Shown: piece by piece, positions 1 to 37,749 of the stretch
Layout: each line of letters starts with the position of its first letter
How positions within the stretch are numbered: position 1 is the stretch's first letter
Assembly: GCA_965205675.1 (NCBI GenBank)
Contig: OZ242186.1
Span: forward strand, 1,344,001 to 1,408,000
DNA length: 64,000 nucleotides
Reading direction: 5' to 3'
Origin: Nitrosopumilus sp.
GTDB lineage: Archaea; Thermoproteota; Nitrososphaeria; Nitrososphaerales; Nitrosopumilaceae
The notes under the pieces: generated by a model
What the model was told of the DNA's origin: nothing
The model's database searches: none
What the model saw: only the letters and a program-made list of their open reading frames with translations
Made by a program: the position numbers and the translations under genes

Positions 1-97
1 AAACCCACAATATTTTTTTGACTGAGTCATGCACTCCAAACCGACATTATTTGTAGCAATACAAATCGACTCAGCGAGTTGGTGTGAGATGTGTAAA

Positions 98-238
98 GAA
101 AATCAAAATGATTTTTGAAATTATTCCCACAGAGTTGTAACGAATTATTTCCAAAAGGGAATAGCTCAACCCAACTCTCATGACGGGAATCGTTCTACTG
201 GAAACGTTATTTCAGAATAAAAGGAGGTTGAACCATTT
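98..238 (+). repeat. Cassette-head structured repeat, copy 1
   Basis: GAAAATC..GATTTTT hairpin; ATTCCC..GGGAAT long stem; CTGGAA-ACGTTA-TTTCAG hairpin; AAAGGAGG before the ATG. Confidence 0.9.
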
Positions 239-1231
239 ATGGTCCAACAAAATATTACAAGTGCAAGTATCAAAAATGCACAAAATCAAAAACTGCTCTT
301 GGCAAAAAACTATGTCGAACAAGAACTAGAAACCCAAGGGTACAGAGGTCGCATCAAGTATGATATGACCAACAAAGCTCTGGTTCAATACAGGACCAAG
401 GAGGGAACAATAGCCGTCATCAAAGAAGGCAAACTGCACATCTTTGAGATGCCGGTCAAAAAGTTCAAGGGGGCACTTCCATTGGAGACAAATCCAGTGG
501 ATATGGATTCCATCAGGACAGAAAAGGCAACATGCTGTAAAAGATGCCATCAATGGAAAAAGACTGCAAACATAACCCGCTGTCCTTGCGGAGGATATCT
601 GGTTCCAAGAAAGAGATTCTCAGTAGATGCTGTAGAGTCCTGGGATGAGGAAGTCCTCGAGATAGAGTTTGCCAAAAAAGACATCATCCTAGCAAAGAAG
701 ACTGATAGGGTACTAGCTCACAAACCAAAGAGATCAACCCCTAAAGGAATCACCGCAAACCTATCTGGAATGTATGCAGTAGATACTCCGCTAGATACCC
801 ACAAGGAAGAGTTGTTGCTAGTTACAGACGGTGAGGATGTAAGAACCATTCGAGTCAGACCCATATCATCATGCAGTCTGATATTTGTAGCGGCGATAGA
901 TTCTGGAATATCTGATGAACAAAAATTTGAGATACTCTCAGAATGCAGAAAGGATGATTCTGAGGACAGACAGTTCCTATCTGAGACAGATAGATTTGTC
1001 AGAGAACACATCCCACAAAAGGCAAAGAACATGGTGGATTCATGGAATGAACCATCATATCCTTTCAAACTTGGCAGAAAAGGCAAGACATCAAAGAGAG
1101 CCACAAGATCACTCAAGAGAATGGACAAGAGTCATGCCTCAGAGAAAACAAGTCTCAAAAACGGAAAAAAGCCACAGTTCTTTGCAAGCTCAGTACCAGC
1201 AGCACAGACTCTCAAGAATGAGTCAAAGTAA
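239..1231 (+). CDS. Hypothetical protein with Zn-ribbon (CKRC..CPCGG) and leader-type N-terminus
   Basis: 330-aa ORF directly after repeat copy 1 and its SD-like motif. Confidence 0.75.
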   Translation: MVQQNITSASIKNAQNQKLLLAKNYVEQELETQGYRGRIKYDMTNKALVQYRTKEGTIAVIKEGKLHIFEMPVKKFKGALPLETNPVDMDSIRTEKATCCKRCHQWKKTANITRCPCGGYLVPRKRFSVDAVESWDEEVLEIEFAKKDIILAKKTDRVLAHKPKRSTPKGITANLSGMYAVDTPLDTHKEELLLVTDGEDVRTIRVRPISSCSLIFVAAIDSGISDEQKFEILSECRKDDSEDRQFLSETDRFVREHIPQKAKNMVDSWNEPSYPFKLGRKGKTSKRATRSLKRMDKSHASEKTSLKNGKKPQFFASSVPAAQTLKNESK

Positions 1232-1534
1232 ATGTCACTACAAGAAGAGTTTGTGACCGAGACAGACATTGCAAAGATACAGCAATCATTTATGGATACA
1301 GAGTCAATCCCAACATCCATAGACGACATCCAATCCAAGAATTTCAAGAGACAGTTCAAGGTGAACAGAAGAAAGGCAAATTCTCTTGAGAAGAAATGGG
1401 ATGTGCGTACAATAAAAAGAATATCTCATACTGGAGATAGTCCACAAAGCAAGAAAAACCGTAAAGTAACAACACGGTTCTTTGCAAGTTCAGTACCGGT
1501 TTCTGCACAGACTCTCAAGAATGAGTCAAAGTAA
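1232..1534 (+). CDS. Hypothetical protein sharing its C-terminus with the upstream ORF
   Basis: Abuts the upstream stop; ends FFASSVP..QTLKNESK like 239..1231. Confidence 0.55.
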   Translation: MSLQEEFVTETDIAKIQQSFMDTESIPTSIDDIQSKNFKRQFKVNRRKANSLEKKWDVRTIKRISHTGDSPQSKKNRKVTTRFFASSVPVSAQTLKNESK

Positions 1535-1659
1535 ATGTCACTGCAAGAAGAGTTTGCAATAGAGGTAATGGAATTTGGTTGCAAAACAATTCCTCTCGAA
1601 TCATCAGAGATGATAGATTCACAGAATGATCCATCTGGAGTATCTGAGGTAGACAACTA

Positions 1660-2106
1660 ATGACTGGAGAGGATATTTACAACAACTGCCAAACCATCCT
1701 ACGACACACAGATGATGGAGACGCTCTGTTTGCAAGTGACTTGAAGCTGGTGCAAAATGCAGCCAATGGTCTTTTGTCTTCAGAAGGCAAAGTCGCCTTG
1801 CGTCGACTCAGATGCCAGTGTGAGACAGGCAAATATCTAGAAGGACCACCTGTTTGTGGAGTGGAGAATCTAACCCGAGGCAGAGGTGAGGATCGCAGAG
1901 TATTCTGGAAAGGAATCGTGGTGGAACACTATGATCATGATTTCTGGTGCTACGAAGGGTGGCAAGAAGAAATGATCAAAGATGCACAACAGCTTGGAAG
2001 AGTATGCCAATACCTAGAAGAGCACGGCATTACGGTGAGTTTTGAGAACTATCTCAAATACACCAAAAATGTTTGCAACGGAGACAAAGAAAATGGGAGT
2101 GTTTGA
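1660..2106 (+). CDS. Hypothetical protein
   Basis: 148-aa ORF with overlapping stop/start (TAATG). Confidence 0.65.
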   Translation: MTGEDIYNNCQTILRHTDDGDALFASDLKLVQNAANGLLSSEGKVALRRLRCQCETGKYLEGPPVCGVENLTRGRGEDRRVFWKGIVVEHYDHDFWCYEGWQEEMIKDAQQLGRVCQYLEEHGITVSFENYLKYTKNVCNGDKENGSV

Positions 2107-2482
2107 TACGGTCATAGCAACCGTGACATGTCCCCATTGCAACGAATCATATCTTCATGAGGACATACAGACAAAATCATTTGTACGTGGACTCTATGAG
2201 ATATACGAAAATGACGACACCCGATATCTGAAAGGAAATCCAATGCTTCCCGGCAGACCAAACGCATTTGCGGGAATCAAAAACATGGATTTTCCATGTT
2301 ACACGCACTGTTACATATGTGATTCTGAGCTTTACATTATCTGTAAAATAAGGAAATACATCCTAACTAAAGCACAGGTCACAAGAATAGATAGGAGAAC
2401 CGTCGGCATGAAGAATCCATACGTTCTAGATCTTAGTGCCAAATCAAAGTCTGCCGCAGAAATGGGGTTTTTAAGAAAATAA
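2093..2482 (+). CDS. Zn-ribbon hypothetical protein (MGVFDT..CPHC..QTK type)
   Basis: CxxC pairs; ATG at 2093 overlaps the previous gene. Confidence 0.65.
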   Translation: MGVFDTVIATVTCPHCNESYLHEDIQTKSFVRGLYEIYENDDTRYLKGNPMLPGRPNAFAGIKNMDFPCYTHCYICDSELYIICKIRKYILTKAQVTRIDRRTVGMKNPYVLDLSAKSKSAAEMGFLRK

Positions 2483-2640: not shown

Positions 2641-2743
2641 TTTCAAAAACCCACAATATTTTTTTGACTGAGCCATGCACTCCAAACCGACATTATTTGT
2701 AGCAATACAAATCGACTCAGCGAGTTGGTGTGAGATGTGTAAA

Positions 2744-2884
2744 GAAAATCCATATGGGTTTTTCAAAGTTATTCCTACAGAGGTATTATAGACTATTCTC
2801 AAAGGAGAATAATCCGAGGTATCTCTCATGCCAGGAATCGTCCTACTGGTGACGTTACAGCCAGAATAAAAGGAGTTGACGCCA
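2744..2884 (+). repeat. Cassette-head structured repeat, copy 2
   Basis: Variant ATTCCT..AGGAAT, AGAGGTA..TATCTCT, CTGG-TGACGTTACAG-CCAG. Confidence 0.9.
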
Positions 2885-3238
2885 ATGGCACAACCATACA
2901 GTGCAAGTGAAAGCACACAAAACAATTCACAAAATCCCGTCCTAGATGGCGATAAAGTCAGTATCTGCGTGAGTGGCAACCAGGTGCAAATACAAAGACC
3001 TGATTTTGTAACTGACAAGCCAATACAGGATATCAGCGAGAAGAGAGAAATTCTTGCAAAGGACTTGCTTGAAGAATGGGAGGCAGTATCTGTACAAAAG
3101 CAGGGAATCCTGTTTGCAGTATCTGTAGGAGATAGCAGATACCTAGTCAGAGGACATGACAGGGTACCGGCAAACGCCGTAGTGGTAAGAACCCAATCAA
3201 ACCAGCTCATGGGTATTGGGGCAGTAGTAGGAGGTTAA
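2885..3238 (+). CDS. Hypothetical protein with shared leader (MAQPYSASESTQNNSQNP)
   Basis: Near-identical copy at 5267..5620. Confidence 0.7.
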   Translation: MAQPYSASESTQNNSQNPVLDGDKVSICVSGNQVQIQRPDFVTDKPIQDISEKREILAKDLLEEWEAVSVQKQGILFAVSVGDSRYLVRGHDRVPANAVVVRTQSNQLMGIGAVVGG

Positions 3239-3753: not shown

Positions 3754-4424
3754 TGGCAAAACGATTTCTCAAAAGAGCATTTGGGGCAGTAGCAATCACA
3801 GTACTGATAGTAATTACAGCATCTCTTACATACCAGTATGTAGTCCCGATGATTCTATCAGATGAGGCATCAAGTGCGGTCTCAGATGGAATAGGTGCCG
3901 GAGAAGAAATGCTGTATGCAGCACAGGACAAAGTTGCAGACATATTCATCACAGAAGAGGAGCCGGTTTCAGAAGACCCCCAGATTGATGAGACAGATGG
4001 CTTGATACAAAACGACATGTACGATGAAATGCCCGAATCCCAAGAGGAGGTAATACCATACAAGACTGCATCGGGAGGCAAAGTCACCAGAATAGTAGAC
4101 GGTGATACGCTAGACATTGACGGAATCCGAATCAGACTTGCATTGGTAAACACCCCCGAGTCCGGAGAGGCAGGATACAAAGAGGCTACGGCATTTACTG
4201 CCAAGCACTGTCCTGTAGGTTCTACTGCAATGTATGATGTGGATAACGGTCAGAAAGGAGGATCATATGGCAGAGTAATCGGCAAGGTATGGTGCTTTGG
4301 CTATCCCGTACAGACACCTGAGACGTCCCTTAACGCGATGCTCATTGATGCAGGACATGCCAGAGTATTAGAAAGATTCTGCGGCGTCAGCCAGTTCAAA
4401 GATGATCATTGGACAGGCTGCTGA
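3753..4424 (+). CDS. Membrane-anchored thermonuclease (staphylococcal nuclease-like)
   Basis: N-terminal hydrophobic segment; VTRIVDGDTL, IRLALVNTPE and YGRVIG SNase motifs. Confidence 0.85.
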   Translation: MAKRFLKRAFGAVAITVLIVITASLTYQYVVPMILSDEASSAVSDGIGAGEEMLYAAQDKVADIFITEEEPVSEDPQIDETDGLIQNDMYDEMPESQEEVIPYKTASGGKVTRIVDGDTLDIDGIRIRLALVNTPESGEAGYKEATAFTAKHCPVGSTAMYDVDNGQKGGSYGRVIGKVWCFGYPVQTPETSLNAMLIDAGHARVLERFCGVSQFKDDHWTGC

Positions 4425-4553
4425 GACCTTACAAACCCCAACTTTTTTTTATGTGACCTGACAATCCTCTCAAACCCAATATCATACTATGACACCTGAC
4501 AGGCAGATTGGATGTGGAGATGGTACAGATGCTTGCAGCATCATACAAAAATC

Positions 4554-5021
4554 ATGAAAGAGGAAACCACAAACAAAGTAAGAACCAGTCTAGTACGAAA
4601 ACAAAACGTGATATTTGTAGCAATGGTAGCAGTTGGGTTATCCCTAACTGTCATGAGCCAGCTTACAGATTCGCGACTGCTAAGTGAAGGCATAGCCTTT
4701 ATTATAGTTGGATTCGTAGGAATGTTAATGTCTTGGACTACGATGGATGTTGGTGCCAGTATCAAAGAAGCAATACATGATGTTGGCAGACAAAACCTAG
4801 CCGCATTGGAATCCATTGCATCTTCTCAAAAAGAGATGGGCAAATCTCTCAAAGAGATGGACACGTCTCTCAAAGAGATGGACACGTCTCTCAAAGAGAT
4901 AGCATCCTCTCAGAAGGAGATAGCATCCTCTCAGAAGGAGATCAAAGACATTCTAGGTACACATACTACGATTCTAGAAAAGCATACTACAATTCTAGAG
5001 AACCTAGAGAAAAAAGACTGA
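4554..5021 (+). CDS. 2-TM coiled-coil protein, type A (cassette-terminal)
   Basis: Two hydrophobic helices then heptad repeats KEMDTSL/KEIASSQ/KHTTILE; paralogs at 16320 and 26988. Confidence 0.75.
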   Translation: MKEETTNKVRTSLVRKQNVIFVAMVAVGLSLTVMSQLTDSRLLSEGIAFIIVGFVGMLMSWTTMDVGASIKEAIHDVGRQNLAALESIASSQKEMGKSLKEMDTSLKEMDTSLKEIASSQKEIASSQKEIKDILGTHTTILEKHTTILENLEKKD

Positions 5022-5126
5022 GTTTTCAAAAACCCACAATATTTTTTTGACTGAGTCATGCACTCCAAACCAACATTATTTGTAGCAATACAAATCGACT
5101 CAGCGAGTTGGTGTGAGATGTGTAAA

Positions 5127-5266
5127 GAAAATCCATATGGGTTTTTCAAAGTTATTCCTACAGAGGTATTATAGACTATTCTCAAAGGAGAATAATCCGA
5201 GGTATCTCTCATGCCAGGAATCGTCCTACTGGAAACGTTATTTCAGAATAAAAGGAGTTGACGCCA
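5127..5266 (+). repeat. Cassette-head structured repeat, copy 3
   Basis: Copy-2-type 5' part with copy-1-type 3' hairpin. Confidence 0.9.
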
Positions 5267-5620
5267 ATGGCACAACCATACAGTGCAAGTGAAAGCACAC
5301 AAAACAATTCACAAAATCCCGTCCTAGATGGCGATAAAGTCAGTATCTGCGTGAGTGGCAACCAGGTGCAAATACAAAGACCTGATTTTGTAACTGACAA
5401 GCCAATACATGATATCAGCGAGAAGAGAGAAATTCTTGCAAAGGACTTGCTTGAAGAATGGGAGGCAGTATCTGTACAAAAGCAGGGAATCCTGTTTGCA
5501 GTATCTGTAGGAGATAGCAGATACCTAGTCAGAGGACATGACAGGGTACCGGCAAACGCCGTAGTGGTAAGAACCCAATCAAACCAGCTCATGGGTATTG
5601 GGGCAGTAGTAGGAGGTTAA
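5267..5620 (+). CDS. Hypothetical protein with shared leader (duplicate of 2885..3238)
   Basis: Near-identical sequence (Q/H change). Confidence 0.7.
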   Translation: MAQPYSASESTQNNSQNPVLDGDKVSICVSGNQVQIQRPDFVTDKPIHDISEKREILAKDLLEEWEAVSVQKQGILFAVSVGDSRYLVRGHDRVPANAVVVRTQSNQLMGIGAVVGG

Positions 5621-5703: not shown

Positions 5704-7923
5704 ATGACAAAAATCTACAAGCCCACAATAATATCTGAAGATCCCCTTGACTTGGAGCAATCCAAGATAAGCTACAACAAGAATCTCTTTGAGGGAACAG
5801 AGAATGGATTTATCAAAATGGATGTGGATAAGGATGTTGCAATACAGAGAATGTCAAGGGATTTGTATCAACATGCAAGTTCCGGGTTCCGTGAACTGTA
5901 TGCCAATGAGGCAAGGGCATGCAGGTATGCAAAAAAGCATCACAACGCAGAACCGCTAATCCTCATTACCCTTGATCCGCAAAAACAAAAGCTGGTAATT
6001 GAGGGAATTGACAGTACTGGAATGACATCAGAGAGATTCAAAAAAGTCTTTACGGTACTAGGACACTCTGATAACTTTGATGGTCAAGAGGTAGGTCAGT
6101 TCGGAATGGGACGCGCTGCATACACCTGTCTTTCAGATACAATAATTCTTGAAACTTTTGCAAGAGAGAGCAACGAGAAATATGCAGTACTTGGAAGAAA
6201 CGGTCTCGGATATCAGATAATTGACGAGCCGAAAATGGATACATATGGAACAAAAATCTCGCTGACACTCTACGGGGAGATAAACTATGAGAGTCTATAC
6301 GCCATGATAGAGAAGGTCTCCAAATTCAGCCAGGTCAAGACAGTTCTTGTTTTAGAGTCCAAAATACAGATCAAATACGGGCAGAAAGAGGCAGGACAGT
6401 ACGTCATGGGACCAGTCTCATATGAACAGGCACTCAAAGAACTTGAAGGCAACAAAGAAGATCAATTGCGAATTCCTATTTCTCTGGAAGACGAATCATT
6501 AAGAATTGATGGGTGCATAAATATTTCCAAAAGGTGGGACGGCACTAATGAGATCTACCATGGCTATGAATCCCTCTTTGAGACATATCTGGTAAATGTC
6601 CCAATAGCGACAAAAATACTATCCCCGCTAAGCCATGGAATCCTTACCATCAAAGACGAGAGAAAGTTTCAGCCAACCCCCGACAGAGAAAGACTCAAAG
6701 AAAGCACCGAAGAACAAGTAAAGACATTAGTGCACCGCCTCTTATCTAGAGAATCCGGACTCAACATTGCAACACTTGAGGAATTCTACAACGGCAAAAA
6801 CAGAATGCTCTACGAGTGCCTCAGTGAGAGACGGTATGACAGCGATGATAGAATTATGAGCATACTTGATGAGCGAACCAAAAATCTCATCAAACTTTTG
6901 GAATGCGAGGTATGGTCTACTGATAAGACAAAGCACGCACTAGTATCGTTGTTAGAAAAGCCCTCAAAGATATTTCATGTTGAAAAACTAGAAAAATCCA
7001 AGATTGCCGCACTGCAACAAGATTCTCCGGGATGCCTGATATTTCGCCCAATCAAACCAGATGTTGCCACGATGGAACTGTTTAGTTCATTTGGGATTTT
7101 ATCTGCTCAAAAATATCTGGATGAAAACAAGATTCAGGTAAAGAGAATCACAACAAAGATGACACAATGCGTAGAACACCATTCTACAGTCAGTTATGAC
7201 CAGTACAAATCAAATGTCGCGCTGCACTCATCAAAGGTCCTGTTTGCAGATGTTGGCGAGAAGACAATACGTGCAGATAAAGAGTTTCAGATGGTAAAAA
7301 ACACATTCAAGAATGCCGTCTGCTCATACAAGACAGTCAAGGACAAGGCAGATATCAAAGGAGGAATCGCATTCTCAGACTTTGTCACAGGGATAGAATC
7401 AAAGACATATCCTACAAGCAGCGGAAATATCTTGCCAAAAGACATTGCAAGGTATCCTGACATCACTCTTTTTGAGTATGATAACAGGAATCTTGCGCCA
7501 GCACTTGAGACACGAGAGGATTCCATACTTGTTATCTCAGACGCAGACGAACTCTTTGAGATTGCAGTATACCTGTCATACAAAAACATACCCTATAATT
7601 TTGTCAAAGAGCAATCAAGGTCTAGCGGTGAGAATTGTTTTGATGTTGGTGAAATGATAAACAAATACGGGAAAACGCGAGACGTAACCGTACACACAGA
7701 TGATTACATCATACCGTATTACAACCATGCCGATGACATTCCAAAACTGATGAGCATACTTGATGGAATAATGACTATCAGTAACGAGAAGATGCTGCAC
7801 CTATTCCTTGATGCAACAAAAAAGAACAAGAGGTATGACAACTCAGAGATGCAAAACAAACTGCCCTTCATACAGAGTCATCTTGCAGCAGCTAGGGAGA
7901 TCTCAAAAAGACTGAGTACCTGA
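5704..7923 (+). CDS. GHKL (Hsp90/HATPase_c) ATPase-domain protein, rIIA-like
   Basis: DLY..SGFRELYANE, DSTGMT, GQFGMG and GTKI motifs in the N-terminal ~200 aa. Confidence 0.75.
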   Translation: MTKIYKPTIISEDPLDLEQSKISYNKNLFEGTENGFIKMDVDKDVAIQRMSRDLYQHASSGFRELYANEARACRYAKKHHNAEPLILITLDPQKQKLVIEGIDSTGMTSERFKKVFTVLGHSDNFDGQEVGQFGMGRAAYTCLSDTIILETFARESNEKYAVLGRNGLGYQIIDEPKMDTYGTKISLTLYGEINYESLYAMIEKVSKFSQVKTVLVLESKIQIKYGQKEAGQYVMGPVSYEQALKELEGNKEDQLRIPISLEDESLRIDGCINISKRWDGTNEIYHGYESLFETYLVNVPIATKILSPLSHGILTIKDERKFQPTPDRERLKESTEEQVKTLVHRLLSRESGLNIATLEEFYNGKNRMLYECLSERRYDSDDRIMSILDERTKNLIKLLECEVWSTDKTKHALVSLLEKPSKIFHVEKLEKSKIAALQQDSPGCLIFRPIKPDVATMELFSSFGILSAQKYLDENKIQVKRITTKMTQCVEHHSTVSYDQYKSNVALHSSKVLFADVGEKTIRADKEFQMVKNTFKNAVCSYKTVKDKADIKGGIAFSDFVTGIESKTYPTSSGNILPKDIARYPDITLFEYDNRNLAPALETREDSILVISDADELFEIAVYLSYKNIPYNFVKEQSRSSGENCFDVGEMINKYGKTRDVTVHTDDYIIPYYNHADDIPKLMSILDGIMTISNEKMLHLFLDATKKNKRYDNSEMQNKLPFIQSHLAAAREISKRLST

Positions 7924-8049
7924 GAGGGAATTTTTTTACCCTCTGGGACAGATCATCCAAACCCGTTTTATCCCATATGGGTCCGGCTCAGCGGGCGGGT
8001 GGAGATGATATAAAATATTCTCACATTTGAGAACAGATAACGTCTAGAT

Positions 8050-8181
8050 GAAAAACGTAATTTTCTAAATTATTCCTACAGAGGTATCAGAATCATCTCA
8101 AAGGAGAATGATCCAAGATACCTCTTATGACGGGAATCGTCCTACTGGAAACGTTATTTCAGAATAAAGGAGTTGATGCCA
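8050..8181 (+). repeat. Cassette-head structured repeat, copy 4
   Basis: AGAGGTATC..GATACCTCT perfect stem variant; followed by a 28-aa leader ORF at 8182..8268. Confidence 0.85.
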
Positions 8182-8260
8182 ATGGCACAACCATACGATA
8201 CAGGTACAAGTATCAAAAACGTACAGCAACAAAATTCCGCCCCTTGTGGCAGTGATATAA

Positions 8261-11580: not shown

Positions 11581-11655
11581 GCATTTTTTTGACAAAGCCT
11601 ACCTGTCTGAACCCGTCACACATTTCTCAGAGACTGATGGGCATAAGACATTAAA

Positions 11656-11796
11656 GAAGATCCACATGGATTTTTCAAAATTATTCCCACAGAGTTGTAA
11701 CGAATTATTTCCAAAAGGGAATAGCTCAACCCAAGCTCTCATGACTGGAATCGTCCTGCTGGTGACGTTACTGCCAGAATAAAGGAGGAACCAATT
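11656..11796 (+). repeat. Cassette-head structured repeat, copy 5
   Basis: Sequence match to the consensus. Confidence 0.9.
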
Positions 11797-12090
11797 ATGG
11801 TCCGACAAAACAGTGCAAGTGAAAGCACACAAAACAATTCACAAAATCCCATCCTTAATACAAATGGTCTCACCCATCACATGGAATGGTCTGAGCACCA
11901 GCAAGAAACACTGGAGTTTCTGCTCGAAGAGCAGGCAGCAAATGAGGAATATTATTCCTCATTAGATGAGCTTTGCTGGCACAGGCACTTTGCAGAGAAG
12001 ATGGACGAGCAGATGGCAAATGAGGAAGAGTATTATTCCTCATTAGATGAACCGCACGGAGTCTCGTGCAACTGTACGGAGTGTAACTAA
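11797..12090 (+). CDS. Leader-bearing small protein with C-terminal H..CxCxxC
   Basis: Paralogs at 21612 and 27617; internal duplication of ANEEYYSSLDE. Confidence 0.7.
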   Translation: MVRQNSASESTQNNSQNPILNTNGLTHHMEWSEHQQETLEFLLEEQAANEEYYSSLDELCWHRHFAEKMDEQMANEEEYYSSLDEPHGVSCNCTECN

Positions 12091-13451: not shown

Positions 13452-13546
13452 AGTACAGTTTGATTTGAGAGTACGACGCCTCAAAACCCATTTTAGTTTT
13501 AGCGCAAGCTAGGACCTGATTTATCAGATGGGTGCGAGGTGTCATG

Positions 13547-13688
13547 GAAGATCCATACGGATTTTTCAAAATTATTCCTACAGAGTTGTAACGAATTATT
13601 TCCAAAAGGGAATAACTCAACCCAATCTCTCATGACGGGAATCGTCCTGCTGGTGACGTTACTGCCAGAATAAAAGGAGGAACCAATT
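13547..13688 (+). repeat. Cassette-head structured repeat, copy 6
   Basis: Sequence match to the consensus. Confidence 0.9.
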
Positions 13689-14195
13689 ATGGTCCGACAA
13701 AACAGTGCAGGTGAAAGCACACAAAACAATTCACAAAATCCCGCCTTTAATACAAATGGTCTTACCCATCACATGGAACAGGCTGAACATCGGCAAGAAA
13801 CACCAAAAGAACTCTCCGATTCCCAAATTTTCGAAAAAATAGCACAGGCGATGAGAGAACATACACCAGGCGGAACCAGTAGTGTAAGATATGACGTACA
13901 AGATGAAAGCATCTACAAATCATATCACAGCGGAAACAGATGGGAACAAGGTGAAGACGGATACTGTCCTTATGAAATTTTCACTCTTGAAAAGTGGTGT
14001 GATGACTATGACATATTGCGAATTTTAGGAGAGGACCCAGATTTTGACGATAAAGAAATATTGAGTAATTCTGAAAAGGTTGAATTATTCTTGAAAAATA
14101 TCTCGATCGAAGATTGGGGGTGCTATGATGAAATCGTATACGAAATCGAAGAAGCAAGAAAATATTATGCCGATTTTTTGGAGAGTCAAAAATGA
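13689..14195 (+). CDS. Leader-bearing acidic hypothetical protein
   Basis: Paralog of 19534..20067. Confidence 0.7.
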   Translation: MVRQNSAGESTQNNSQNPAFNTNGLTHHMEQAEHRQETPKELSDSQIFEKIAQAMREHTPGGTSSVRYDVQDESIYKSYHSGNRWEQGEDGYCPYEIFTLEKWCDDYDILRILGEDPDFDDKEILSNSEKVELFLKNISIEDWGCYDEIVYEIEEARKYYADFLESQK

Positions 14196-15389: not shown

Positions 15390-15489
15390 AAAGAACAAAC
15401 AAATTTTTTGAGCAAAATATCTAGATGCATCAAATCTCAAAGCAATCAGATTTTAGAGATTCTTTGATGGATGGCTGCTAGATAACATG

Positions 15490-15628
15490 GAAGATCCATA
15501 CGGATTTTTCAAAATTATTCCCACAGAGTTGTAACGAATTATTTCCAAAAGGGAATAACTCAGCCCAAGCTCTCATGACGGGAATCGTCCTGCTGGAAAC
15601 GTTATTTCAGAATTAGGAGGAACCAATT
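15490..15628 (+). repeat. Cassette-head structured repeat, copy 7
   Basis: Sequence match to the consensus. Confidence 0.9.
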
Positions 15629-15850
15629 ATGGTCCGACAAAACAGTGCAAGTGAAAGCACACAAAACAAATCACAAAATCCCGGAGAACTGGTAAGAGAA
15701 ATCCACTGGGAGCATAGATTGTGGATGTCTACACGTATACGGATGGAAAACGCAATGAAGACCGTAAGAATATCTGCAAGACTGCCCGAAAAGAAAGACA
15801 GATGGAATGAGAGCGTATCCTGTGAGATTCTGGAGCAAGTACAGAAATGA
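15629..15850 (+). CDS. Leader-bearing hypothetical protein
   Basis: MVRQNSASESTQNKSQNP start after the SD-like motif. Confidence 0.6.
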   Translation: MVRQNSASESTQNKSQNPGELVREIHWEHRLWMSTRIRMENAMKTVRISARLPEKKDRWNESVSCEILEQVQK

Positions 15851-21425: not shown

Positions 21426-21471
21426 CATTTCTAAGATAATTATCTTTAGAATCCAATGAGTTTTTGGTACA

Positions 21472-21611
21472 GAAAATCAAAGACAGATTTTCAAAATTAT
21501 TCCTACAGAGTTGTGTAGAATTATTCTCATAGAGTGTGATTCAAAGTAACTCTCATGACAGGAATCGTACTGCTGGAGACGTTACTGCCAGAATAAAAGG
21601 AGGAACCAATT
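21472..21611 (+). repeat. Cassette-head structured repeat, copy 10
   Basis: Variant GAATTATTCTC-ATA-GAGTGTGATTC. Confidence 0.9.
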
Positions 21612-22059: not shown

Positions 22060-22593
22060 ATGTCTGATAGAATCCCGGACTGGGAAGACATGCCAGACGG
22101 CGTATCTCTTGTGACACTGTCATGGGAGGACGTGTACGTCAAGGCTCGCAAGGAACTGTTGAGAAATCCGACAAGAGAGGAGACATTGAAGATCTTCGAT
22201 GACATTGCACATCCTATGAGCAATGCAGTACAAGACGACATGCCTGCACATCTTGATGCCCTGATTGAGGAGATGGTCAAAGAATGTCTCAAATCAAAAC
22301 CATACAGTATAGATTCCATGAGTCCAGAAGAACTCGTATCCAGAAAATACTGCCATACATGCCAGGACATACAGGAGACATACTGGGAACTTGGAGTGTG
22401 TGAGAAGAATCCCGAAGGACTCTGCATACCAAAAGACCACGGAAACGACAAAGACGGCATCATAGAGTGCAGTGATGAATGGTGTAACCCGACACAGCAA
22501 ACTGTAGAGACGCAGATCACAAAAGAGTTCGTCCAGAGTCACAACGTGGATGAAAGATGTGCACAGTGTCACCGCATGCTGGAGTCTCAGTAA
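22060..22593 (+). CDS. Cys-rich hypothetical protein
   Basis: Paralog of the N-terminal part of 28903..29958. Confidence 0.7.
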   Translation: MSDRIPDWEDMPDGVSLVTLSWEDVYVKARKELLRNPTREETLKIFDDIAHPMSNAVQDDMPAHLDALIEEMVKECLKSKPYSIDSMSPEELVSRKYCHTCQDIQETYWELGVCEKNPEGLCIPKDHGNDKDGIIECSDEWCNPTQQTVETQITKEFVQSHNVDERCAQCHRMLESQ

Positions 22594-22594
22594 T

Positions 22595-23401
22595 ATGAAA
22601 AACTCTGAGAAAGCAACAGTTCTGCTAAAAGAGATTGCAGAAGTCTTTTCCAAAAAAGAGTTTGCCTCAAACTGTGCAAAGGTGTTTATCAACGCCAAAG
22701 AAAACGACATACCGTCATCCTCATGGTCAATGGGAAACCAATTACTGATGCTGTTTTCTGGAACAGATGATGCAAGAGGGTACAGGCAATGGGGGCAGGT
22801 AAAGCGCCACGTCAAAAAGGGCTCAAAGGCAATCTACATACTGGTCCCAATGGTAAAGAAGATCAAAGACAAGAAGACAGACGAGGAGAGGACAGTAACT
22901 ATCGGATTCCGGGGAGTGCCTGTATTTAGATACGAGGACACTGAAGGAGAGGCTCTAAAGGCATACACTCCAAGGACTCTGCCTCCGCTATTTGGGCTTG
23001 CAGAAAAAAATGGAATCGACGTGAGATGGACAAACACAAAACAGGGAGAGTACGGCTCAATGAATCATACTGACAAATCCATGACTCTGAGTACTGAGGC
23101 ACCTGACACGTTTTTGCACGAACTGATGCACTGGTATGACGGCAAAAACGTCAAGATGGTAAACGGACAAGACCCTGAACAGGAGACTGTCGCACAGCTT
23201 GGAGCATGTGTGCTTGCAAAACTGTACGGGTATGACTCTGAGAGCTACACCTGGAACTATATCGCATCATACGCCAAGGCAGAGTCTCCGCAAGACGTCG
23301 GGCAGATGTGCTTTAAGGTACTCAGCAGAGTGCAAAAGGCAATCACTGCAATACTTGATGATGCAGAGTCTTTGCCAGCCCTAAAGGTGCCATCAAAATG
23401 A
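22595..23401 (+). CDS. ArdC-like protein (N-terminal ssDNA-binding domain plus HExxH metallopeptidase-like domain)
   Basis: WSMGNQLL..ARGYRQW..RHVKKGSKAIYILVP..F..VPVF; FLHELMH; E.VAQL. Confidence 0.8.
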   Translation: MKNSEKATVLLKEIAEVFSKKEFASNCAKVFINAKENDIPSSSWSMGNQLLMLFSGTDDARGYRQWGQVKRHVKKGSKAIYILVPMVKKIKDKKTDEERTVTIGFRGVPVFRYEDTEGEALKAYTPRTLPPLFGLAEKNGIDVRWTNTKQGEYGSMNHTDKSMTLSTEAPDTFLHELMHWYDGKNVKMVNGQDPEQETVAQLGACVLAKLYGYDSESYTWNYIASYAKAESPQDVGQMCFKVLSRVQKAITAILDDAESLPALKVPSK

Positions 23402-24524: not shown

Positions 24525-24770
24525 ATGTCTGAGACAAAAACCCTCAATCCTTTTGAGCATCTCCCAGAGGATAAACTAGAGATAATCAGAAAGGATTTTG
24601 AGCAAAACAACTACAGATCAGATACTTTTGAGGAACATCTAAAGTCATTGCATGAAGATGATATGATTCCAGAAGAAGTGTTAGATATAATCGAGGTCAG
24701 AAAAAGCAAGGATTGGAAGACATTTTCCTCAGCTGAAGAATTGTTAGAAGAATTACATAGAGATGACTAG
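24525..24770 (+). CDS. Putative antitoxin
   Basis: First 57 aa identical to 20881; different C-terminus. Confidence 0.7.
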   Translation: MSETKTLNPFEHLPEDKLEIIRKDFEQNNYRSDTFEEHLKSLHEDDMIPEEVLDIIEVRKSKDWKTFSSAEELLEELHRDD

Positions 24771-25032
24771 CTGGAAGATAAAAAAAGAAAATACTTTCAA
24801 AAAACAATACAAAAACATTGGACACAATAGACAGTCTATTGCAGATAAAGCAATTCTAGAACTTGCAGCATCTTCAAATCCTGCAAATCTTGGAAAATAC
24901 AAACAAAGCAACAAAGTCTTTGCATATGAACTTGGAAAAAATGATCGCCTAATCTACACCTTGGATTATTTTCACAATGAGATAATCCTACTTCGAGTAT
25001 GTGACCACAAATCAGTCTATGGCAAAGACTAG
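24763..25032 (+). CDS. RelE/ParE-family toxin
   Basis: W.I....FKKQYK..DRLIY..RVCDHKSVYGKD. Confidence 0.8.
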   Translation: MTSWKIKKENTFKKQYKNIGHNRQSIADKAILELAASSNPANLGKYKQSNKVFAYELGKNDRLIYTLDYFHNEIILLRVCDHKSVYGKD

Positions 25033-25123
25033 AGAAACCAAAACAAATTTTTTGAACAAAACATCCAAGACTCATAGCATTTCTAAGATAATTATCTTTA
25101 GAATCCAATGAGTTTTTGGTACA

Positions 25124-25263
25124 GAAAATCAAAGACAGATTTTCAAAATTATTCCTACAGAGTTGTGTAGAATTATTCTCATAGAGTATGATTCAAAGTA
25201 GCTCTCATGACGGGAATCGTCCTGCTGGTGACGTTACTGCCAGAATAAAAGGAGGAACCAATT
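25124..25263 (+). repeat. Cassette-head structured repeat, copy 11
   Basis: Close to copy 10. Confidence 0.9.
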
Positions 25264-25539
25264 ATGGTCCGACAAAACAGTGCAAGTGAAAGCACACAAA
25301 ACAAATCACAGCAAAACAACGATGCAGTAAAAGTCGACATAGAAAATTCAAACGACAGTTCTATGGCAAACAGCAAAAAAGGCATCAAGTTACTAAGAGC
25401 TGAAATACAGGCACACTTTTGCCAAATCCAAGAATACCTGGATGAAAACGATGCAGATCATACCAGGTACGCATTCCATGAAGCAGACACTGCAGCCCAC
25501 AAAATAAGGGATTTGTGTGATATGGAGGCCGGACAATAA
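25264..25539 (+). CDS. Leader-bearing hypothetical protein
   Basis: MVRQNSASESTQNKSQ start. Confidence 0.65.
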   Translation: MVRQNSASESTQNKSQQNNDAVKVDIENSNDSSMANSKKGIKLLRAEIQAHFCQIQEYLDENDADHTRYAFHEADTAAHKIRDLCDMEAGQ

Positions 25540-27371: not shown

Positions 27372-27476
27372 GTTTTCAAAAACCCACAATATTTTTTTGA
27401 CTGAGTCATGCACTCCAAACCAACATTATTTGTAGCAATACAAATCGACTCAGCGAGTTGGTGTGAGATGTGTAAA

Positions 27477-27616
27477 GAAGATCCATACGGATTTTCCAAA
27501 GTTGTTCCTACAGAGTTATTTTCAGAATCATCTCAAAAGAGAATGATTCGGGTATCTCTCATGACAGGAATCGTCCTGCTGGAAACGTTATTTCAGAATA
27601 TAGGAGGAAAAGTCAA
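27477..27616 (+). repeat. Cassette-head structured repeat, copy 12
   Basis: Copy-8-like variant. Confidence 0.9.
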
Positions 27617-27826
27617 ATGGCTTTACCAAACAATACAAGTACAAGTATAACAAATGTACAAAATCCCGCCTTTTATGGAAAAGGCATTACACCATCCATG
27701 GAATGGACACAAGAACAACAAGAAATCTTGCAAGATCAACTTGAAGAACAGGTTGCAAATGAGGAATACTATGGTACCCTAGATGAACCACATGGATGGA
27801 CATGTAATTGTCTGGAGTGCAACTAA
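27617..27826 (+). CDS. Small Cys/His protein with divergent leader
   Basis: Paralog of 11797 and 21612. Confidence 0.7.
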   Translation: MALPNNTSTSITNVQNPAFYGKGITPSMEWTQEQQEILQDQLEEQVANEEYYGTLDEPHGWTCNCLECN

Positions 27827-31781: not shown

Positions 31782-31876
31782 AGTACAGTTTGATTTGAGA
31801 GTACGACACCTCAAAACCCATTTTAGTTTTAGCGCAAGCTAGGACCTGATTTATCAGATGGGTGCGAGGTGTCATG

Positions 31877-32018
31877 GAAGATCCACATGGATTTTTCAAA
31901 ATTATTCCCACAGAGTTGTAACGAATTATTTCCAAAAGGGAATAACTCAGCCCAAGATCTCATGACGGGAATCGTCCTGCTGGTGACGTTACTGCCAGAA
32001 TAAAAGGAGGAACCAATT
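31877..32018 (+). repeat. Cassette-head structured repeat, copy 13
   Basis: Sequence match to the consensus. Confidence 0.9.
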
Positions 32019-32615
32019 ATGGTCCAACAAAAACTAGAATACAAAAATCAGGTGTTAGTGATACGTCCAGAAGAAACACCAGAATCTCCAAGAGGCCTGA
32101 CAGAAAATATCGGAACGATGGTCTGCTCACACAGCAGATATACGCTAGGGGATGTGCAGACAGAATTCACCACAGTACAAGAGTATCTGGAATCCGAAGA
32201 GATATCCTTCAAAGAGATTGCAGTGATCATGCCGCTGTACCTGTATGATCATAGTGGCATTAGCATGTCTTGCGGCAAACGCCTCGGGCAATACAATGAC
32301 TCGTGGGACTCTTCATATGTGGGATTCATCTATGCCACAAAAGAAGAGATACGCAAGCAATGGAGCACAAGTAGAATTTCAAAACAGCTCAAAAAGCACG
32401 TCACAGAAAGACTAGAATACGAAGTCAAGACATACGACCAGTATCTCACAGGAGACGTATACGAGTTTACCCTGTATACAAAGGAAACATGCAGTCTTAA
32501 TGAGACACATCTCCAAGTGGTGGAGTGTTGCGGTGGATTTTATGGCGACTGTCATGAAGAGTCAGGACTTGCAGAGTGTATCGAGGGATTTGCAAACTTT
32601 GAGGAGGCTAGCTAA
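32019..32615 (+). CDS. MGE-type conserved protein (PLYLYDHSGI..WDSS.VGFIY..YDQYL.GDVY)
   Basis: Motif recalled from ICE/phage hypothetical proteins; 3 tandem copies. Confidence 0.75.
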   Translation: MVQQKLEYKNQVLVIRPEETPESPRGLTENIGTMVCSHSRYTLGDVQTEFTTVQEYLESEEISFKEIAVIMPLYLYDHSGISMSCGKRLGQYNDSWDSSYVGFIYATKEEIRKQWSTSRISKQLKKHVTERLEYEVKTYDQYLTGDVYEFTLYTKETCSLNETHLQVVECCGGFYGDCHEESGLAECIEGFANFEEAS

Positions 32616-33043
32616 TGTCAGCACAAGAGATACCAAAACTCTGCGAGACCGATGGAACACCGTTTGCAGAGAAGATAATCCACCAGATATGGCACATTGC
32701 ATCAGTAAACTTTGTGTGGTGTGTGGCAGAACTGGACGAAACAACAAAGGAGGCATTCGGATATGCCAATCTCAACTCCGACAGAGACGCAGAATGGGGA
32801 TACATTGACATTGCAGACATTAAGAAAAATGGTGCAAAACTAACAGAGACTACAATCAAACCGTTCTCAGAGATGCTACCTTTGGTACGACCTCAAAACG
32901 ATTGTCCAGAGTGTGGTTCCACCCAATACGGATATCACGCCATCAAGAGAGGAGACCCTACATTGACTGATGACACATTTGAGTTGTGGATTTGCAGAAA
33001 CTGCAACTTTCAGCCATTTTCAAACATCAGGGGTCTGATATAG
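32615..33043 (+). CDS. DUF2958-like protein with Zn-ribbon
   Basis: Paralog of 25539. Confidence 0.7.
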   Translation: MSAQEIPKLCETDGTPFAEKIIHQIWHIASVNFVWCVAELDETTKEAFGYANLNSDRDAEWGYIDIADIKKNGAKLTETTIKPFSEMLPLVRPQNDCPECGSTQYGYHAIKRGDPTLTDDTFELWICRNCNFQPFSNIRGLI

Positions 33044-33859: not shown

Positions 33860-33954
33860 AGTACAGTTTGATTTGAGAGTACGACACCTCAAAACCCATT
33901 TTAGTTTTAGCGCAAGCTAGGACCTGATTTATCAGATGGGTGCGAGGTGTCATG

Positions 33955-34096
33955 GAAGATCCACATGGATTTTTCAAAATTATTCCCACAGAGTTGTAAC
34001 GAATTATTTCCAAAAGGGAATAACTCAGCCCAAGATCTCATGACGGGAATCGTCCTGCTGGTGACGTTACTGCCAGAATAAAAGGAGGAACCAATT
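33955..34096 (+). repeat. Cassette-head structured repeat, copy 14
   Basis: Matches copy 13, offset 2078 bp. Confidence 0.9.
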
Positions 34097-34693
34097 ATGG
34101 TCCAACAAAAACTAGAATACAAAAATCAGGTGTTAGTGATACGTCCAGAAGAAACACCAGAATCTCCAAGAGGCCTGACAGAAAATATCGGAACGATGGT
34201 CTGCTCACACAGCAGATATACGCTAGGGGATGTGCAGACAGAATTCACCACAGTACAAGAGTATCTGGAATCCGAAGAGATATCCTTCAAAGAGATTGCA
34301 GTGATCATGCCGCTGTACCTGTATGATCATAGTGGCATTAGCATGTCTTGCGGCAAACGCCTCGGGCAATACAATGACTCGTGGGACTCTTCATATGTGG
34401 GATTCATCTATGCCACAAAAGAAGAGATACGCAAGCAATGGAGCACAAGTAGAATTTCAAAACAGCTCAAAAAGCACGTCACAGAAAGACTAGAATACGA
34501 AGTCAAGACATACGACCAGTATCTCACAGGAGACGTATACGAGTTTACCCTGTATACAAAGGAAACATGCAGTCTTAATGAGACACATCTCCAAGTGGTG
34601 GAGTGTTGCGGTGGATTTTATGGCGACTGTCATGAAGAGTCAGGACTTGCAGAGTGTATCGAGGGATTTGCAAACTTTGAGGAGACTAGCTAA
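34097..34693 (+). CDS. YDHSG-motif protein, copy 2
   Basis: Near-identical to 32019. Confidence 0.75.
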   Translation: MVQQKLEYKNQVLVIRPEETPESPRGLTENIGTMVCSHSRYTLGDVQTEFTTVQEYLESEEISFKEIAVIMPLYLYDHSGISMSCGKRLGQYNDSWDSSYVGFIYATKEEIRKQWSTSRISKQLKKHVTERLEYEVKTYDQYLTGDVYEFTLYTKETCSLNETHLQVVECCGGFYGDCHEESGLAECIEGFANFEETS

Positions 34694-35916: not shown

Positions 35917-36011
35917 AGTACAGTTTGATTTGAGAGTACGACACCTCAAAACCCATTTTAGTTTTAGCGCAAGCTAGGACCTGATTTATCAGATGGGTGC
36001 GAGGTGTCATG

Positions 36012-36153
36012 GAAGATCCATACGGATTTTTCAAAATTATTCCTACAGAGTTGTAACGAATTATTTCCAAAAGGGAATAACTCAACCCAATCTCTCATGA
36101 CGGGAATCGTCCTGCTGGTGACGTTACTGCCAGAATAAAAGGAGGAACCAATT
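36012..36153 (+). repeat. Cassette-head structured repeat, copy 15
   Basis: Matches copy 6. Confidence 0.9.
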
Positions 36154-36750
36154 ATGGTCCGACAAAAACTAGAATACAAAAATCAGGTGTTAGTGATACG
36201 TCCAGAAGAAACACCAGAATCTCCAAGAGACACGGAAGAAAACCTCGGAACGATGGTCTGCTCACACAGCAAATATGCGCTAGGGGATGTACAGACAGAG
36301 TTCACTACAGTACAAGAGTATCTGGAATCCGAAGAGATATCCTTCAAAGAGATTGCAGTGATCATGCCGCTGTACCTGTATGATCATAGTGGCATTAGCA
36401 TGTCTTGCGGCAAACGCCTCGGGCAATACAATGACTCGTGGGATTCTTCATGTGTGGGATTCATCTATGCCACAAAAGAAGAGATACGCAAGCAATGGAG
36501 CACAAGTAGAATTTCAAAACAACTCAAAAAGCACGTCACAGAAATACTAGAATCCGAAGTCAAGACATACAACCAGTATCTCACAGGAGACGTATACGAG
36601 TTTACCCTGTATACAAAGGAATCATGCAGTCTTAATGAGACACATCTCCAAGTGGTGGAGTGTTGCGGTGGATTTTATGGCGACTGTCATGAAGAGTCAG
36701 GACTTGCAGAGCATATCGAGGGATTTGCAAACTTTGAGGAGACTAGCTAA
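36154..36750 (+). CDS. YDHSG-motif protein, copy 3
   Basis: Slightly diverged paralog of 32019. Confidence 0.75.
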   Translation: MVRQKLEYKNQVLVIRPEETPESPRDTEENLGTMVCSHSKYALGDVQTEFTTVQEYLESEEISFKEIAVIMPLYLYDHSGISMSCGKRLGQYNDSWDSSCVGFIYATKEEIRKQWSTSRISKQLKKHVTEILESEVKTYNQYLTGDVYEFTLYTKESCSLNETHLQVVECCGGFYGDCHEESGLAEHIEGFANFEETS

Positions 36751-37178
36751 TGTCAGCACAAGAGATACCAAAACTCTGCGAGACCGATGGAACACCGTTT
36801 GCAGAGAAGATAATCCACCAGATATGGCACATTGCATCAGTAAACTTTGTGTGGTGTGTGGCAGAACTGGACGAAACAACAAAGGAGGCATTCGGATATG
36901 CCAATCTCAACGATGATGATATGGCCGAATGGGGATACATTAGCATCCCAGAGATCAAGGCAAACGGGGCAAAGATGATAGAGTCTGAGCCAAAAAAGTT
37001 CTCAGAGATGATAAAGTTGCTAAGACCAAAGAATGGCTGTCCAGAGTGTACTTCGGTCCAGTACGGATTTCACACGATACAAAGAGGAGATCCTACATTG
37101 ACTGATGACACATTTGAGATGTGGATTTGCAGAAACTGCAACTTTCAGCCATTTACAAACATCAGAGGTCTGGTCTAG
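36750..37178 (+). CDS. DUF2958-like protein, mosaic allele
   Basis: N-terminal part matches 32615; the rest is diverged. Confidence 0.7.
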   Translation: MSAQEIPKLCETDGTPFAEKIIHQIWHIASVNFVWCVAELDETTKEAFGYANLNDDDMAEWGYISIPEIKANGAKMIESEPKKFSEMIKLLRPKNGCPECTSVQYGFHTIQRGDPTLTDDTFEMWICRNCNFQPFTNIRGLV

Positions 37179-37341
37179 AAATGTCTGAATGCCCAAGAGT
37201 CAATACAGTTTATCAAGACAGAAAACTCATAATGCAAGGGCAAATGACATACACTCGAAAGCATGAGCACTGCCAGATACAAGTGACATGCTAAAGACAT
37301 ACAAGCTAGCCGTATTATCTGCGAAAAGGAGCAGCAGGTAA

Positions 37342-37749
37342 TTGGCTGTCGGAACAGAACTGTTATGCAGCATCTTTGATGTGCTGGCATACAACAACTC
37401 TAGACAAAAGATTCTCAGACGTCTGTACTGCGAGTCAGGACAGCCTGCACGAAAAGCACACAGATTCGTCTCAGAATCCACAAGAAAAAGCCTGGAGCAG
37501 ATAATCCCAAAATGCAAGACCTGCAAGCATTCAAAGCTAAGGCATCTCACCATGGTGTTGACATTTGAGGAGCTGGCAAGTCTCAAAGAGTCAGAACTGC
37601 TCAGAGAGCTGTACATTCAGATTGGCGGTCCTGCAAGAGTCGCATACAATCTATGCAATGCCAAAACACAAAAATCAATCCAGAAACTCGGGATTGACAC
37701 AGTGAAAGGAAAAACACTAAAAAAACCAAAATTTAGGGAATCCCCCTGA
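37342..37749 (+). CDS. Hypothetical protein (5' end possibly degraded)
   Basis: 135-aa ORF at the end of the array. Confidence 0.4.
   Translation: MAVGTELLCSIFDVLAYNNSRQKILRRLYCESGQPARKAHRFVSESTRKSLEQIIPKCKTCKHSKLRHLTMVLTFEELASLKESELLRELYIQIGGPARVAYNLCNAKTQKSIQKLGIDTVKGKTLKKPKFRESP

Follow-up and report, generated by a model that had tools for sequence, protein, structure and literature searches.

We analysed a 64,000-nt window of a Nitrosopumilus genome (G000:C1:1344001-1408000; G000 is a single-contig genome of 2.01 Mb with 33.7% guanine plus cytosine, GC), in which positions 1 to 37749 of the plus strand belong to an array of gene cassettes headed by copies of one structured non-coding element. 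G000 encodes an archaeal AmoA (E 1.9e-116), so the host is an ammonia-oxidising archaeon. We consider it probable that the element is a promoter and cis-regulatory 5′ untranslated region (5′-UTR) module that heads the accessory, partly anti-restriction and toxin-antitoxin (TA), operons of an archaeal integrative and conjugative element (ICE), and that these operons are shuffled by homologous recombination. The evidence comprises the repeats themselves, a sense-strand structure with covariation, its fixed place before a Shine-Dalgarno (SD) sequence and AUG, a conserved block upstream, the link to an island with VirB4- and VirD4-type genes, and mosaic reassortment. An earlier reading of the DNA letters by a model (the sequence-only reading) had proposed a modular, recombining platform for gene capture and expression; the present results support modular expression units arrayed on a mobile element, with recombination between them.

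Repeat finding, alignment of the 15 copies named in that reading, a genome scan with a profile hidden Markov model (HMM) and a covariance model all gave concordant results. In the window, the HMM and the covariance model each returned exactly 15 strong copies, every one on the plus strand (covariance-model E-values 2e-21 to 3e-31), with starts 4–7 nt from those first given. The leaders, each comprising helices P0 to P4 and the SD sequence, are c98 (94..238, 154.7 bits), c2744 (2740..2887, 160.2 bits), c5127 (5123..5269, 156.1 bits), c8050 (8043..8184, 121.1 bits, the most diverged), c11656 (11652..11799, 161.0 bits), c13547 (13543..13691, 169.1 bits), c15490 (15486..15631, 155.0 bits), c16851 (16847..16994, 148.2 bits), c19393 (19389..19536, 166.2 bits), c21472 (21468..21614, 149.9 bits), c25124 (25120..25266, 152.8 bits), c27477 (27473..27619, 127.2 bits), c31877 (31873..32021, 165.0 bits), c33955 (33951..34099, 165.0 bits) and c36012 (36008..36156, 169.1 bits). 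Each terminates in AGGAG(G) and a start codon, which agrees with the claim that the copies sit directly before the first ATG. The repeat length of 140 bp given at first was too short: the conserved unit is approximately 300–330 nt long and runs from a T-run via a promoter-like block and the leader to about codon 17.

Genome searches with the two models, a step that the sequence-only reading had proposed, recovered 19 copies in G000, 18 in one same-strand array and one stray, all preceding a start codon; further HMM matches elsewhere in the genome were weak (E > 1) and judged to be noise. The suspicion that the window edge cuts the array was correct, as three further copies lie upstream (genome 1338406, 1340316 and 1342184). 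The array starts at genome 1336600, 7.4 kb upstream of the window, and its window part holds cassettes 4–18 of 0–18, as delimited by the HMM, the covariance model and the GC/AT-skew profile. Over 45 kb every gene is on a single strand, and the profile fits this: over window 1–38 kb an A-over-T skew of 0.17–0.26 coincides with raised GC (37–46% across the array, 33.7% in the genome as a whole), which fits a single coding strand and a foreign origin. The first cassette lacks the full leader; the start-proximal motif CGACTCAGCGAGTAGGTATGAGG and a P0-like hairpin are kept at genome 1336401-1336450, followed by approximately 250 nt of unrelated sequence before the ATG. The stray 19th copy (genome 1153624-1153769, minus strand, 190 kb from the array) carries the canonical CCAAACCCATTTTA block, with a ParE-type TA pair before it, a truncated 115-aa copy of a 330-aa gene (family F01) after it and insertion sequence genes flanking; it looks like a displaced array fragment.

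The leader consists of five helices: a hairpin, P0; P1, P2 and P3, nested as one long irregular hairpin with an AAA loop; and a hairpin, P4, with the loop ACGUUA. Among the G000 copies 93.5% of cells were paired, against 31.5–54.2% with the partners slid, and nine pairs had changed on both sides. As these copies are close kin, independent copies were sought in other genomes, giving a covariation sample of eight genomes and 15 metagenome contigs. In the 43 distinct copies from outside G000, 91.9% of cells were paired (32.9–54.0% slid), compensatory changes were found at 30 of 35 pairs, and none of 500 shuffles matched any of the five measures. Counted in alignment A6, which was fitted to the model, G-U and U-G outnumbered A-C and C-A by 106 to 37, with 91.9% pairing on the sense strand and 87.1% on the other; the G-U excess identifies the coding strand as the folding strand. 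The structure is real, and it is on the sense strand. Copies from other species that have diverged to 35–117 bits retain every helix via compensatory changes, which requires selection on structure. Sense-strand structure backed by covariation, the hallmark sought for a cis-regulatory 5′-UTR, is thus present.

The invariant letters lie in loops and junctions: AAAGAARAUC...GAUUUUC, AUUCCU/AGGAAU, the AAA loop, GGAAUCGU.CU.CUG and ACGUUA. Rfam 15 gave no match at the gathering threshold across the whole window and none at E<=5 for one copy with its flanks. Three further features were considered and dropped. A pseudoknot from the P4 loop to the P2/P3 junction (GUAACG/CGUUAC) occurs in one G000 subtype only and, by eye, is unconserved; an anti-SD role of UCCU or the P1 5′ strand is, also by eye, unconserved in other species; and the GA dinucleotides of a K-turn in the P1/P2 internal loop are not conserved either.

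Upstream of the leader, copies from five genomes share the order T6-7 run, palindrome GACTGAGTC, a block ...CCAAACCCATTTTAT..., a small variable hairpin and CCGACTCAGCGGATGGGTGTGAGATG. A block resembling a B recognition element and TATA box (BRE/TATA-like) stands at −57 to −85 in 14/19 G000 copies, where 0.0047 per such window would be expected by chance; both GACTSAG motifs were present in nine of the 19, the T-run in 15, and the strict block form in 23 of the 41 non-G000 copies with upstream sequence. In c2744 this half occupies 2659..2739 of the plus strand, with T7 at 2659, the palindrome GACTGAGCC at 2666, the BRE/TATA-like CAAACCGACATTATTT at 2683 and, near the predicted transcript start, GACTCAGCG at 2714; in c13547 a block scan placed CAAAACCCATTTTAG at 13482..13496 (plus strand). 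The block resembles the motif (AAAAC(C)ATTTTTAT or the like) found 25–30 nt before the 42 tRNA genes of the host, the consensus to which c2744 was compared, and this likeness predicts a transcript start approximately 20–30 nt before P0. The block would then be a promoter, and the structure would lie in the mRNA leader. The available part of a Red Sea transcription start site paper (PMC5069720) yielded no promoter consensus.

Runs of at least six T on the coding strand of the array are concentrated at the module, 14 of 29 falling 68–112 nt before the element, within 6.4% of array length. Most of the others stand just before genes encoding two transmembrane (2-TM) segments and before TA modules, so these look like separate small units, and the tightly coupled operons of the sequence-only reading do not extend to every gene of a cassette. 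Each 2-TM/coiled-coil gene of family F02 has ...CCCCAAC-T8-ATGTGACCTGACA about 70 nt upstream (window 2504, 4443, 16213 and 26881, and upstream copies), one of the 12 being the gene at 4512..5021 (plus strand), identified by family and T-run analysis, with its own T8/TATA-like tract. Such a T-rich tract could double as terminator and TATA box, in which case the 2-TM genes would be independent units directly preceding the next module. A scan for bacterial-type terminators gave no enrichment (17 found, 15.1 expected).

A distinctly unlikely alternative is that the element is RNA punctuation: a processing signal, either a new self-cleaving ribozyme class or an endonuclease target, that cuts long array transcripts into operon mRNAs with a protected 5′ end. 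Genes on one strand over 45 kb would suit such a signal, as would invariant single-stranded junction and loop nucleotides like those of ribozyme cores, the five G000 copies that lack the promoter-like block, and a first cassette with the start-proximal motif but not the full element. The promoter-like block and preceding T-run at most copies argue against it, and no Rfam ribozyme resembles the element at a threshold as loose as E<=5.

Downstream, every copy folds from the SD end to codon 4 as a hairpin, P5, with the start codon at the loop edge and not buried. Its stems vary among copies (GGAACCA/UGGUCC, GUUGACGCC/GGCACAAC, AAAGUC/GGCUUU, GAUACUA/UGGUAUC), and P5 was scored copy by copy because MAFFT set these variants in different registers. 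Its mean free energy was −6.9 kcal/mol in 44 copies, compared with −3.05 at 400 host gene starts (mean z −1.7). In the example at 13679..13695 (plus strand), found by copy-wise folding, GGAACCA-AUUA-UGGUCC spans the 3′ end of the SD sequence and the start codon. A further hairpin, P6, is found in codons 6–11 of most copies, with 75.7% of cells paired (9.5–52.3% slid) and GC/AU swaps at two of its four pairs. The slide test places it at 13705..13734 (plus strand; GUGC-AGGUGAAA-GCAC) together with an overlapping alternative helix, GUGAA/UUCAC, and the two may form a pseudoknot topology.

Nearly all downstream open reading frames (ORFs) begin MVQQ regardless of protein family, and the MVQQ codons are the 3′ arm of P5. 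Since P5 and P6 both fall within the first codons, the "leader tag" of the sequence-only reading is largely an RNA-level constraint. In c8050 it heads no more than an upstream ORF of 28 codons (8182-8268, by translation) that follows the leader. It is improbable that conservation is driven mainly by the peptide, that is, that the N/Q/S/T-rich tag (MVQQN.TS.S..N.QQ) is a targeting, secretion or degradation signal and the helices in the ORF are incidental. The tag is recognisable at the protein level in diverged copies and is fused to unrelated proteins, as such a signal would be, but it is confined to the first gene of each unit. Residues 6–11 co-vary as an RNA helix (GUGC/GCAC versus AUAC/GUAU), altering the amino acids, MVQQ coincides with an arm of P5, and some copies keep P0-P5 with no tag past MVQQ. 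A peptide signal would also leave the 148-nt non-coding structure unexplained.

The array is part of a high-GC island that spans genome ~1.25–1.382 Mb (approximately 130 kb). The sequence-only reading had placed a possible recombinase upstream; none adjoins the array, and the nearest tyrosine recombinase (PF00589) lies at genome 1249268, the left edge of the island, approximately 87 kb before the array start, so that the array forms the integrase-distal end of the island. No serine recombinase or resolvase was found in the G000 search. Inspection of the upstream flank, which that reading had also suggested, revealed a VirB4/TraG-P-loop ATPase, a VirD4-type ATPase and a paralogue of the TATA-binding protein (TBP) 12–17 kb upstream of the array on the same strand. 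The 613-aa VirB4-type protein matched TraG P-loop (55.9 bits) and HerA (34.1 bits); matches of the 850-aa VirD4-type protein were weak (TraG-D_C 23.5 bits, cut-off 22; T4SS-DNA_transf 19.8 bits, cut-off 20.1). A BsuBI/PstI-type nuclease and an actin-like ParM are also encoded in this flank. The TBP paralogue (genome 1324799-1325305, PF00352 46.2 bits, one repeat matched) comes just after the VirD4-type gene and is a candidate recogniser of the module's promoter block.

The covariance model found diverged copies (35–75 bits) in four of 90 other genomes of the genus and in none of 60 outside it. A DNA pattern for wider scans, which recovered 23 of the 28 copies then known, was run on 185,579 species, each represented by one genome, and located 13 loci; apart from a 10-kb contig binned as Nitrospinales, all of them came from records titled Nitrosopumilus. 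This contig (CBDBHY010000002.1, 10,178 bp, from a metagenome-assembled genome titled Nitrospinales) carries three leader copies and the same cargo families, and is probably archaeal DNA placed in the wrong bin, not a sign that the leader occurs in bacteria. Of 15 metagenome contigs in which the pattern was also found, at least four are titled marine; viral contigs gave no match, and blastn of one module against phage and plasmid records found nothing. A same-strand VirB4 gene 7–33 kb upstream of the array is common to G000 and three other genomes: G007 (55% VirB4 identity, 7 kb before the lone copy there), G151 (79% identity, 33 kb before one of two arrays that together hold 15 copies) and G152 (10 copies, 49% identity, 10 kb upstream). 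In G036 there is only a distant VirB4, 97 kb away. The island's conserved last gene (RRLYCESGQ..., 37342..37749, plus strand) likewise stands at the array end in G007 and G036. As an integration site, purD was rejected, since it flanks the array end in G007 but is 290 kb away in G000.

This setting matches what is described for thaumarchaeal ICEs. The pair of VirB4/TrbE-like and VirD4/TraG-like ATPases that marks them is present here, with weak VirD4-type scores, and the parts of PMC6563490 available to us describe likewise a large integrated island, this pair and an element-encoded basal transcription factor paralogue, which there is a TFIIB homologue and here a TBP paralogue. Those parts mention no repeated leader or cassette array; they report no relaxase, and possibly double-stranded DNA transfer. 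The sequence-only reading drew two analogies, and the one with the repeated-promoter leading region of conjugative plasmids fits better, with VirB4/VirD4-type genes upstream on the same strand and ArdC-like and ParE-type TA cargo. As far as the accessible text of PMC11541004 goes, bacterial leading-region islands with Frpo/ssi elements likewise have a one-strand accessory block beside the transfer genes, with anti-restriction, TA and unknown genes, and a repeated structured non-coding element ahead of gene groups. What sets the present array apart from them is an archaeal host, a sense-strand fold, the fusion to SD and AUG, and an ordinary BRE/TATA-like block.

The leading-region layout would be expected if the element, like Frpo/ssi, folded in transferred single-stranded DNA (ssDNA) and served as a promoter or priming site after conjugative entry, and G-T pairs are tolerated in DNA as well. 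Yet an ssDNA promoter needs the template strand, whereas it is the sense strand that pairs better (91.9% versus 87.1%); no helix rebuilds a BRE/TATA, P3 co-varies freely, and an ordinary double-stranded promoter-like block stands upstream. Thaumarchaeal ICEs, moreover, may move as double-stranded DNA, no relaxase having been detected in them (PMC6563490, parts available). The strand test and the ordinary block thus make the ssDNA reading disfavoured, and we rate it as very unlikely. Fusion of a sense-strand fold to SD and AUG, behind a promoter-like block, points to an mRNA leader instead of an ssDNA promoter.

The 19 cassettes comprise approximately 80 ORFs, and 20 families recur among them in varying combinations, in line with the earlier observation that the same genes occur in different cassettes. 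F02 has 12 genes in 11 cassettes, F18 occurs in four cassettes and F13–F17 in two. From copy to copy, variants of P0, P2-P3, P4 and P5 combine independently of one another; c2744 and c5127, for instance, differ in P4 only. Recombination between repeats, which the sequence-only reading had inferred, is therefore real, given both the mosaic element variants and the reassorted families. The breakpoints look like gene-conversion patches inside the element and not like a single crossover point. Recent tandem duplicates are a 2,078/2,057-bp unit present three times and a unit of approximately 1.9 kb present four times. Growth and shuffling of the array would have proceeded by homologous recombination and unequal crossing-over between modules. 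Three DNA runs were compared as contigs, which were broken at the repeat and had even depth in their unique parts; they showed no variants and no joints and were uninformative on cassette order.

Chromosomal integrons hold TA modules inside their cassette arrays, and TA modules occur in this array too. Together with the long one-strand array, the reassorted cassettes and a tyrosine recombinase on the island, this likeness could suggest a site-specific recombination site, an attC- or VCR-like cassette boundary served by a recombinase elsewhere on the island. In the available parts of PMC9668308, integron arrays, including archaeal ones, likewise have long same-strand cassettes, a conserved structured repeat between them and reassortment. 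They differ in that here no IntI is adjacent, no attC-type hairpin is present, and the repeat, with a promoter-like block, SD and AUG, is 5′ to cassettes that are multi-gene and probably self-expressed. The recombinase is approximately 87 kb off. Instead of a single imperfect hairpin, the element is a multi-domain, sense-strand structure that stands 5′ of multi-gene units, preceded by a promoter-like block and joined directly to SD and AUG. Inspection of the aligned copies by eye showed no GTTRRRY core (no attC model was run), and the independent assortment of P4 types from P2-P3 and P5 types fits homologous exchange better. The integron-like gene-capture site of the sequence-only reading thus fails on the features examined, and any recombination-site function is very improbable. 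That the element is a selfish dispersed repeat, of the kind of miniature inverted-repeat transposable elements (MITEs), or a functionless by-product of tandem duplication is hardly credible: several cassettes are indeed recent tandem duplicates, but 18/19 copies share one array and one orientation and every copy precedes a start codon, rather than being dispersed genome-wide with no link to operon starts, and the covariation of copies at 35–117 bits, which keep all helices by compensatory change, largely refutes it.

As a promoter and 5′-UTR module, the element is comparable to known cis-regulatory leaders (riboswitches, ribosomal-protein leaders and phage translational operators), with which it shares a conserved fold of several helices placed between the predicted promoter and the start codon, loops and junctions that hold the invariant nucleotides, and a hairpin just before the SD sequence. 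It differs from them in matching no Rfam family, in heading unrelated mobile-element cargo instead of one pathway, and in occurring up to 18 times per array. To our knowledge, structured regulatory RNAs have seldom been described in Archaea. Among the matches listed for Nitrosopumilus and riboswitch, titles and abstracts contained no such motif. The accessible parts of PMC6563490, PMC9668308 and PMC11541004 held nothing resembling the leader module; their supplementary annotations may list the island family.

As we picture it, the oligo-T tract at the start of the module would end the preceding unit, and a BRE/TATA-like promoter with a palindromic operator-like motif on either side (GACTGAGTC ... 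GACTCAGC) would drive a structured 5′-UTR of about 170 nt, consisting of P0, P1-P2-P3 with the AAA loop, the GGAAUCGU.CU.CUG stretch and P4 with the invariant ACGUUA loop. The Shine-Dalgarno sequence would follow, then P5 with the start codon at the loop edge and often P6 in codons 6–11. The most likely route would be that a protein or ligand binds P1-P4 beside the ribosome-binding site and so controls translation initiation or mRNA stability. The leader would act in cis and post-transcriptionally, placing all operons under one signal.

Several observations weigh against a promoter and 5′-UTR module of this kind. The transcript start and the transcription of the element are predicted from DNA sequence, and five of the 19 G000 copies (c11656, c15490, c19393, c21472 and c25124) are without the promoter-like block. 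The pair and G-U counts lean towards the structural model because alignment A6 was fitted to it; RNAalifold on a MAFFT-only alignment of 22 full-length leaders gave 13 pairs, as diverged copies misalign there. P5 has only moderate stability, and pairing of the start codon is no more frequent than in host genes (0.43 versus 0.44), for which reason an AUG buried in the stem was dropped as a candidate. By eye, the aligned copies showed no conserved alternative pairing of the kind that sequesters the SD sequence in classical switches. P0 and the following U4-5 could themselves terminate transcripts. The N-terminal tag is conserved as an N/Q/S/T-rich peptide as well, and may have a role at the protein level. 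Finally, the motif occurs without a VirB4 match in G015 and G054 and is absent from five genomes that have close VirB4 homologues.

A more far-reaching version, which we regard as tentative and on balance unlikely, is that the leader represents a new class of sensor RNA (riboswitch-like, a protein-operated switch or a self-cleaving ribozyme) that synchronises up to 18 anti-defence and establishment operons on conjugative entry or induction. If so, it would parallel, in Archaea and by means of RNA, the leading region that ssDNA promoters drive in bacterial plasmids, and the element's TBP paralogue and the GACTSAG operators would add a transcriptional layer. Even as a promoter and 5′-UTR module, the leader motif has unusually strong comparative support and is tied to mobile islands of a very abundant marine archaeal genus. 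It offers a handle on how accessory, probably anti-defence, genes are organised and co-regulated in archaeal conjugative elements, and a ready promoter-leader for expression studies in organisms without genetic tools. The array also illustrates how repeated regulatory modules drive the duplication and shuffling of cassettes without a dedicated recombinase.

Among the cargo, the anti-defence and TA content of the one-strand block amounts to one ArdC-like gene, two ParE-type TA modules and one SNase, most of the remainder being without annotation (all features here are on the plus strand). The ArdC-N-like anti-restriction gene (22550..23401, 283 aa) scored 22.4 bits with PF08401 (cut-off 22.6) and matched PHROG 7245, 'anti-restriction protein', at E 1.8e-10. 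The first TA module (20881..21425) pairs a small antitoxin-like F10 with a ParE-type toxin, F12 (PF05016 23.1 bits, cut-off 23), and the second (24525..25032) pairs F10 with a ParE-like F12 (PF15781 19.2 bits, below the cut-off of 28). The SNase-like nuclease is encoded at 3849..4424 (PF00565 29.1 bits). The large F04 protein (5704..7923; paralogue at 8351-10906) has no Pfam match, and its relatives are phage proteins, some with a GHKL ATPase domain (atlas scores 0.98–0.99). A PcfJ-like assignment of F01 was rejected because its atlas score of 0.79 was below evidence level. Pfam gave no family for nine of 10 larger cargo proteins.

Family clustering identified a pair of F19 (198 aa) and F18 (142 aa) genes at 32019..33043 that occurs three times in tandem (also 34097-35121 and 36154-37178). 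F19 (window 32019-32615, 34097-34693 and 36154-36750) has 2,321 relatives, and all named ones among the 120 best are 'hypothetical protein'. Its AlphaFold model has a pLDDT of 92.8, and it has invariant C, H and D residues; Foldseek against the PDB gave nothing at E<=0.001, and VIA-align reached a Z of 5.4 at best. For F18, only 26 relatives and no Pfam domain turned up.

No tRNA genes were found in the window. About 400 nt past the last array gene there is a perfect 13-nt tandem repeat of TAGCTGGAAACTA (window 38133-38423, 22.4 copies, 100% matches), at which GC falls to the host level. An 11-nt tandem repeat follows at window 45082-45356 (26 copies, 85% matches), and genes for a DDE and an IS110-family transposase lie at window 56870-59283. 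Between these, at window 46277-53571, stand two large co-oriented genes, encoding a 1329-aa protein that contains an Eco57I/MmeI-type methylase and a 1102-aa PLD and SNF2/DEAD helicase protein; the pair looks like a host defence system beside the island.

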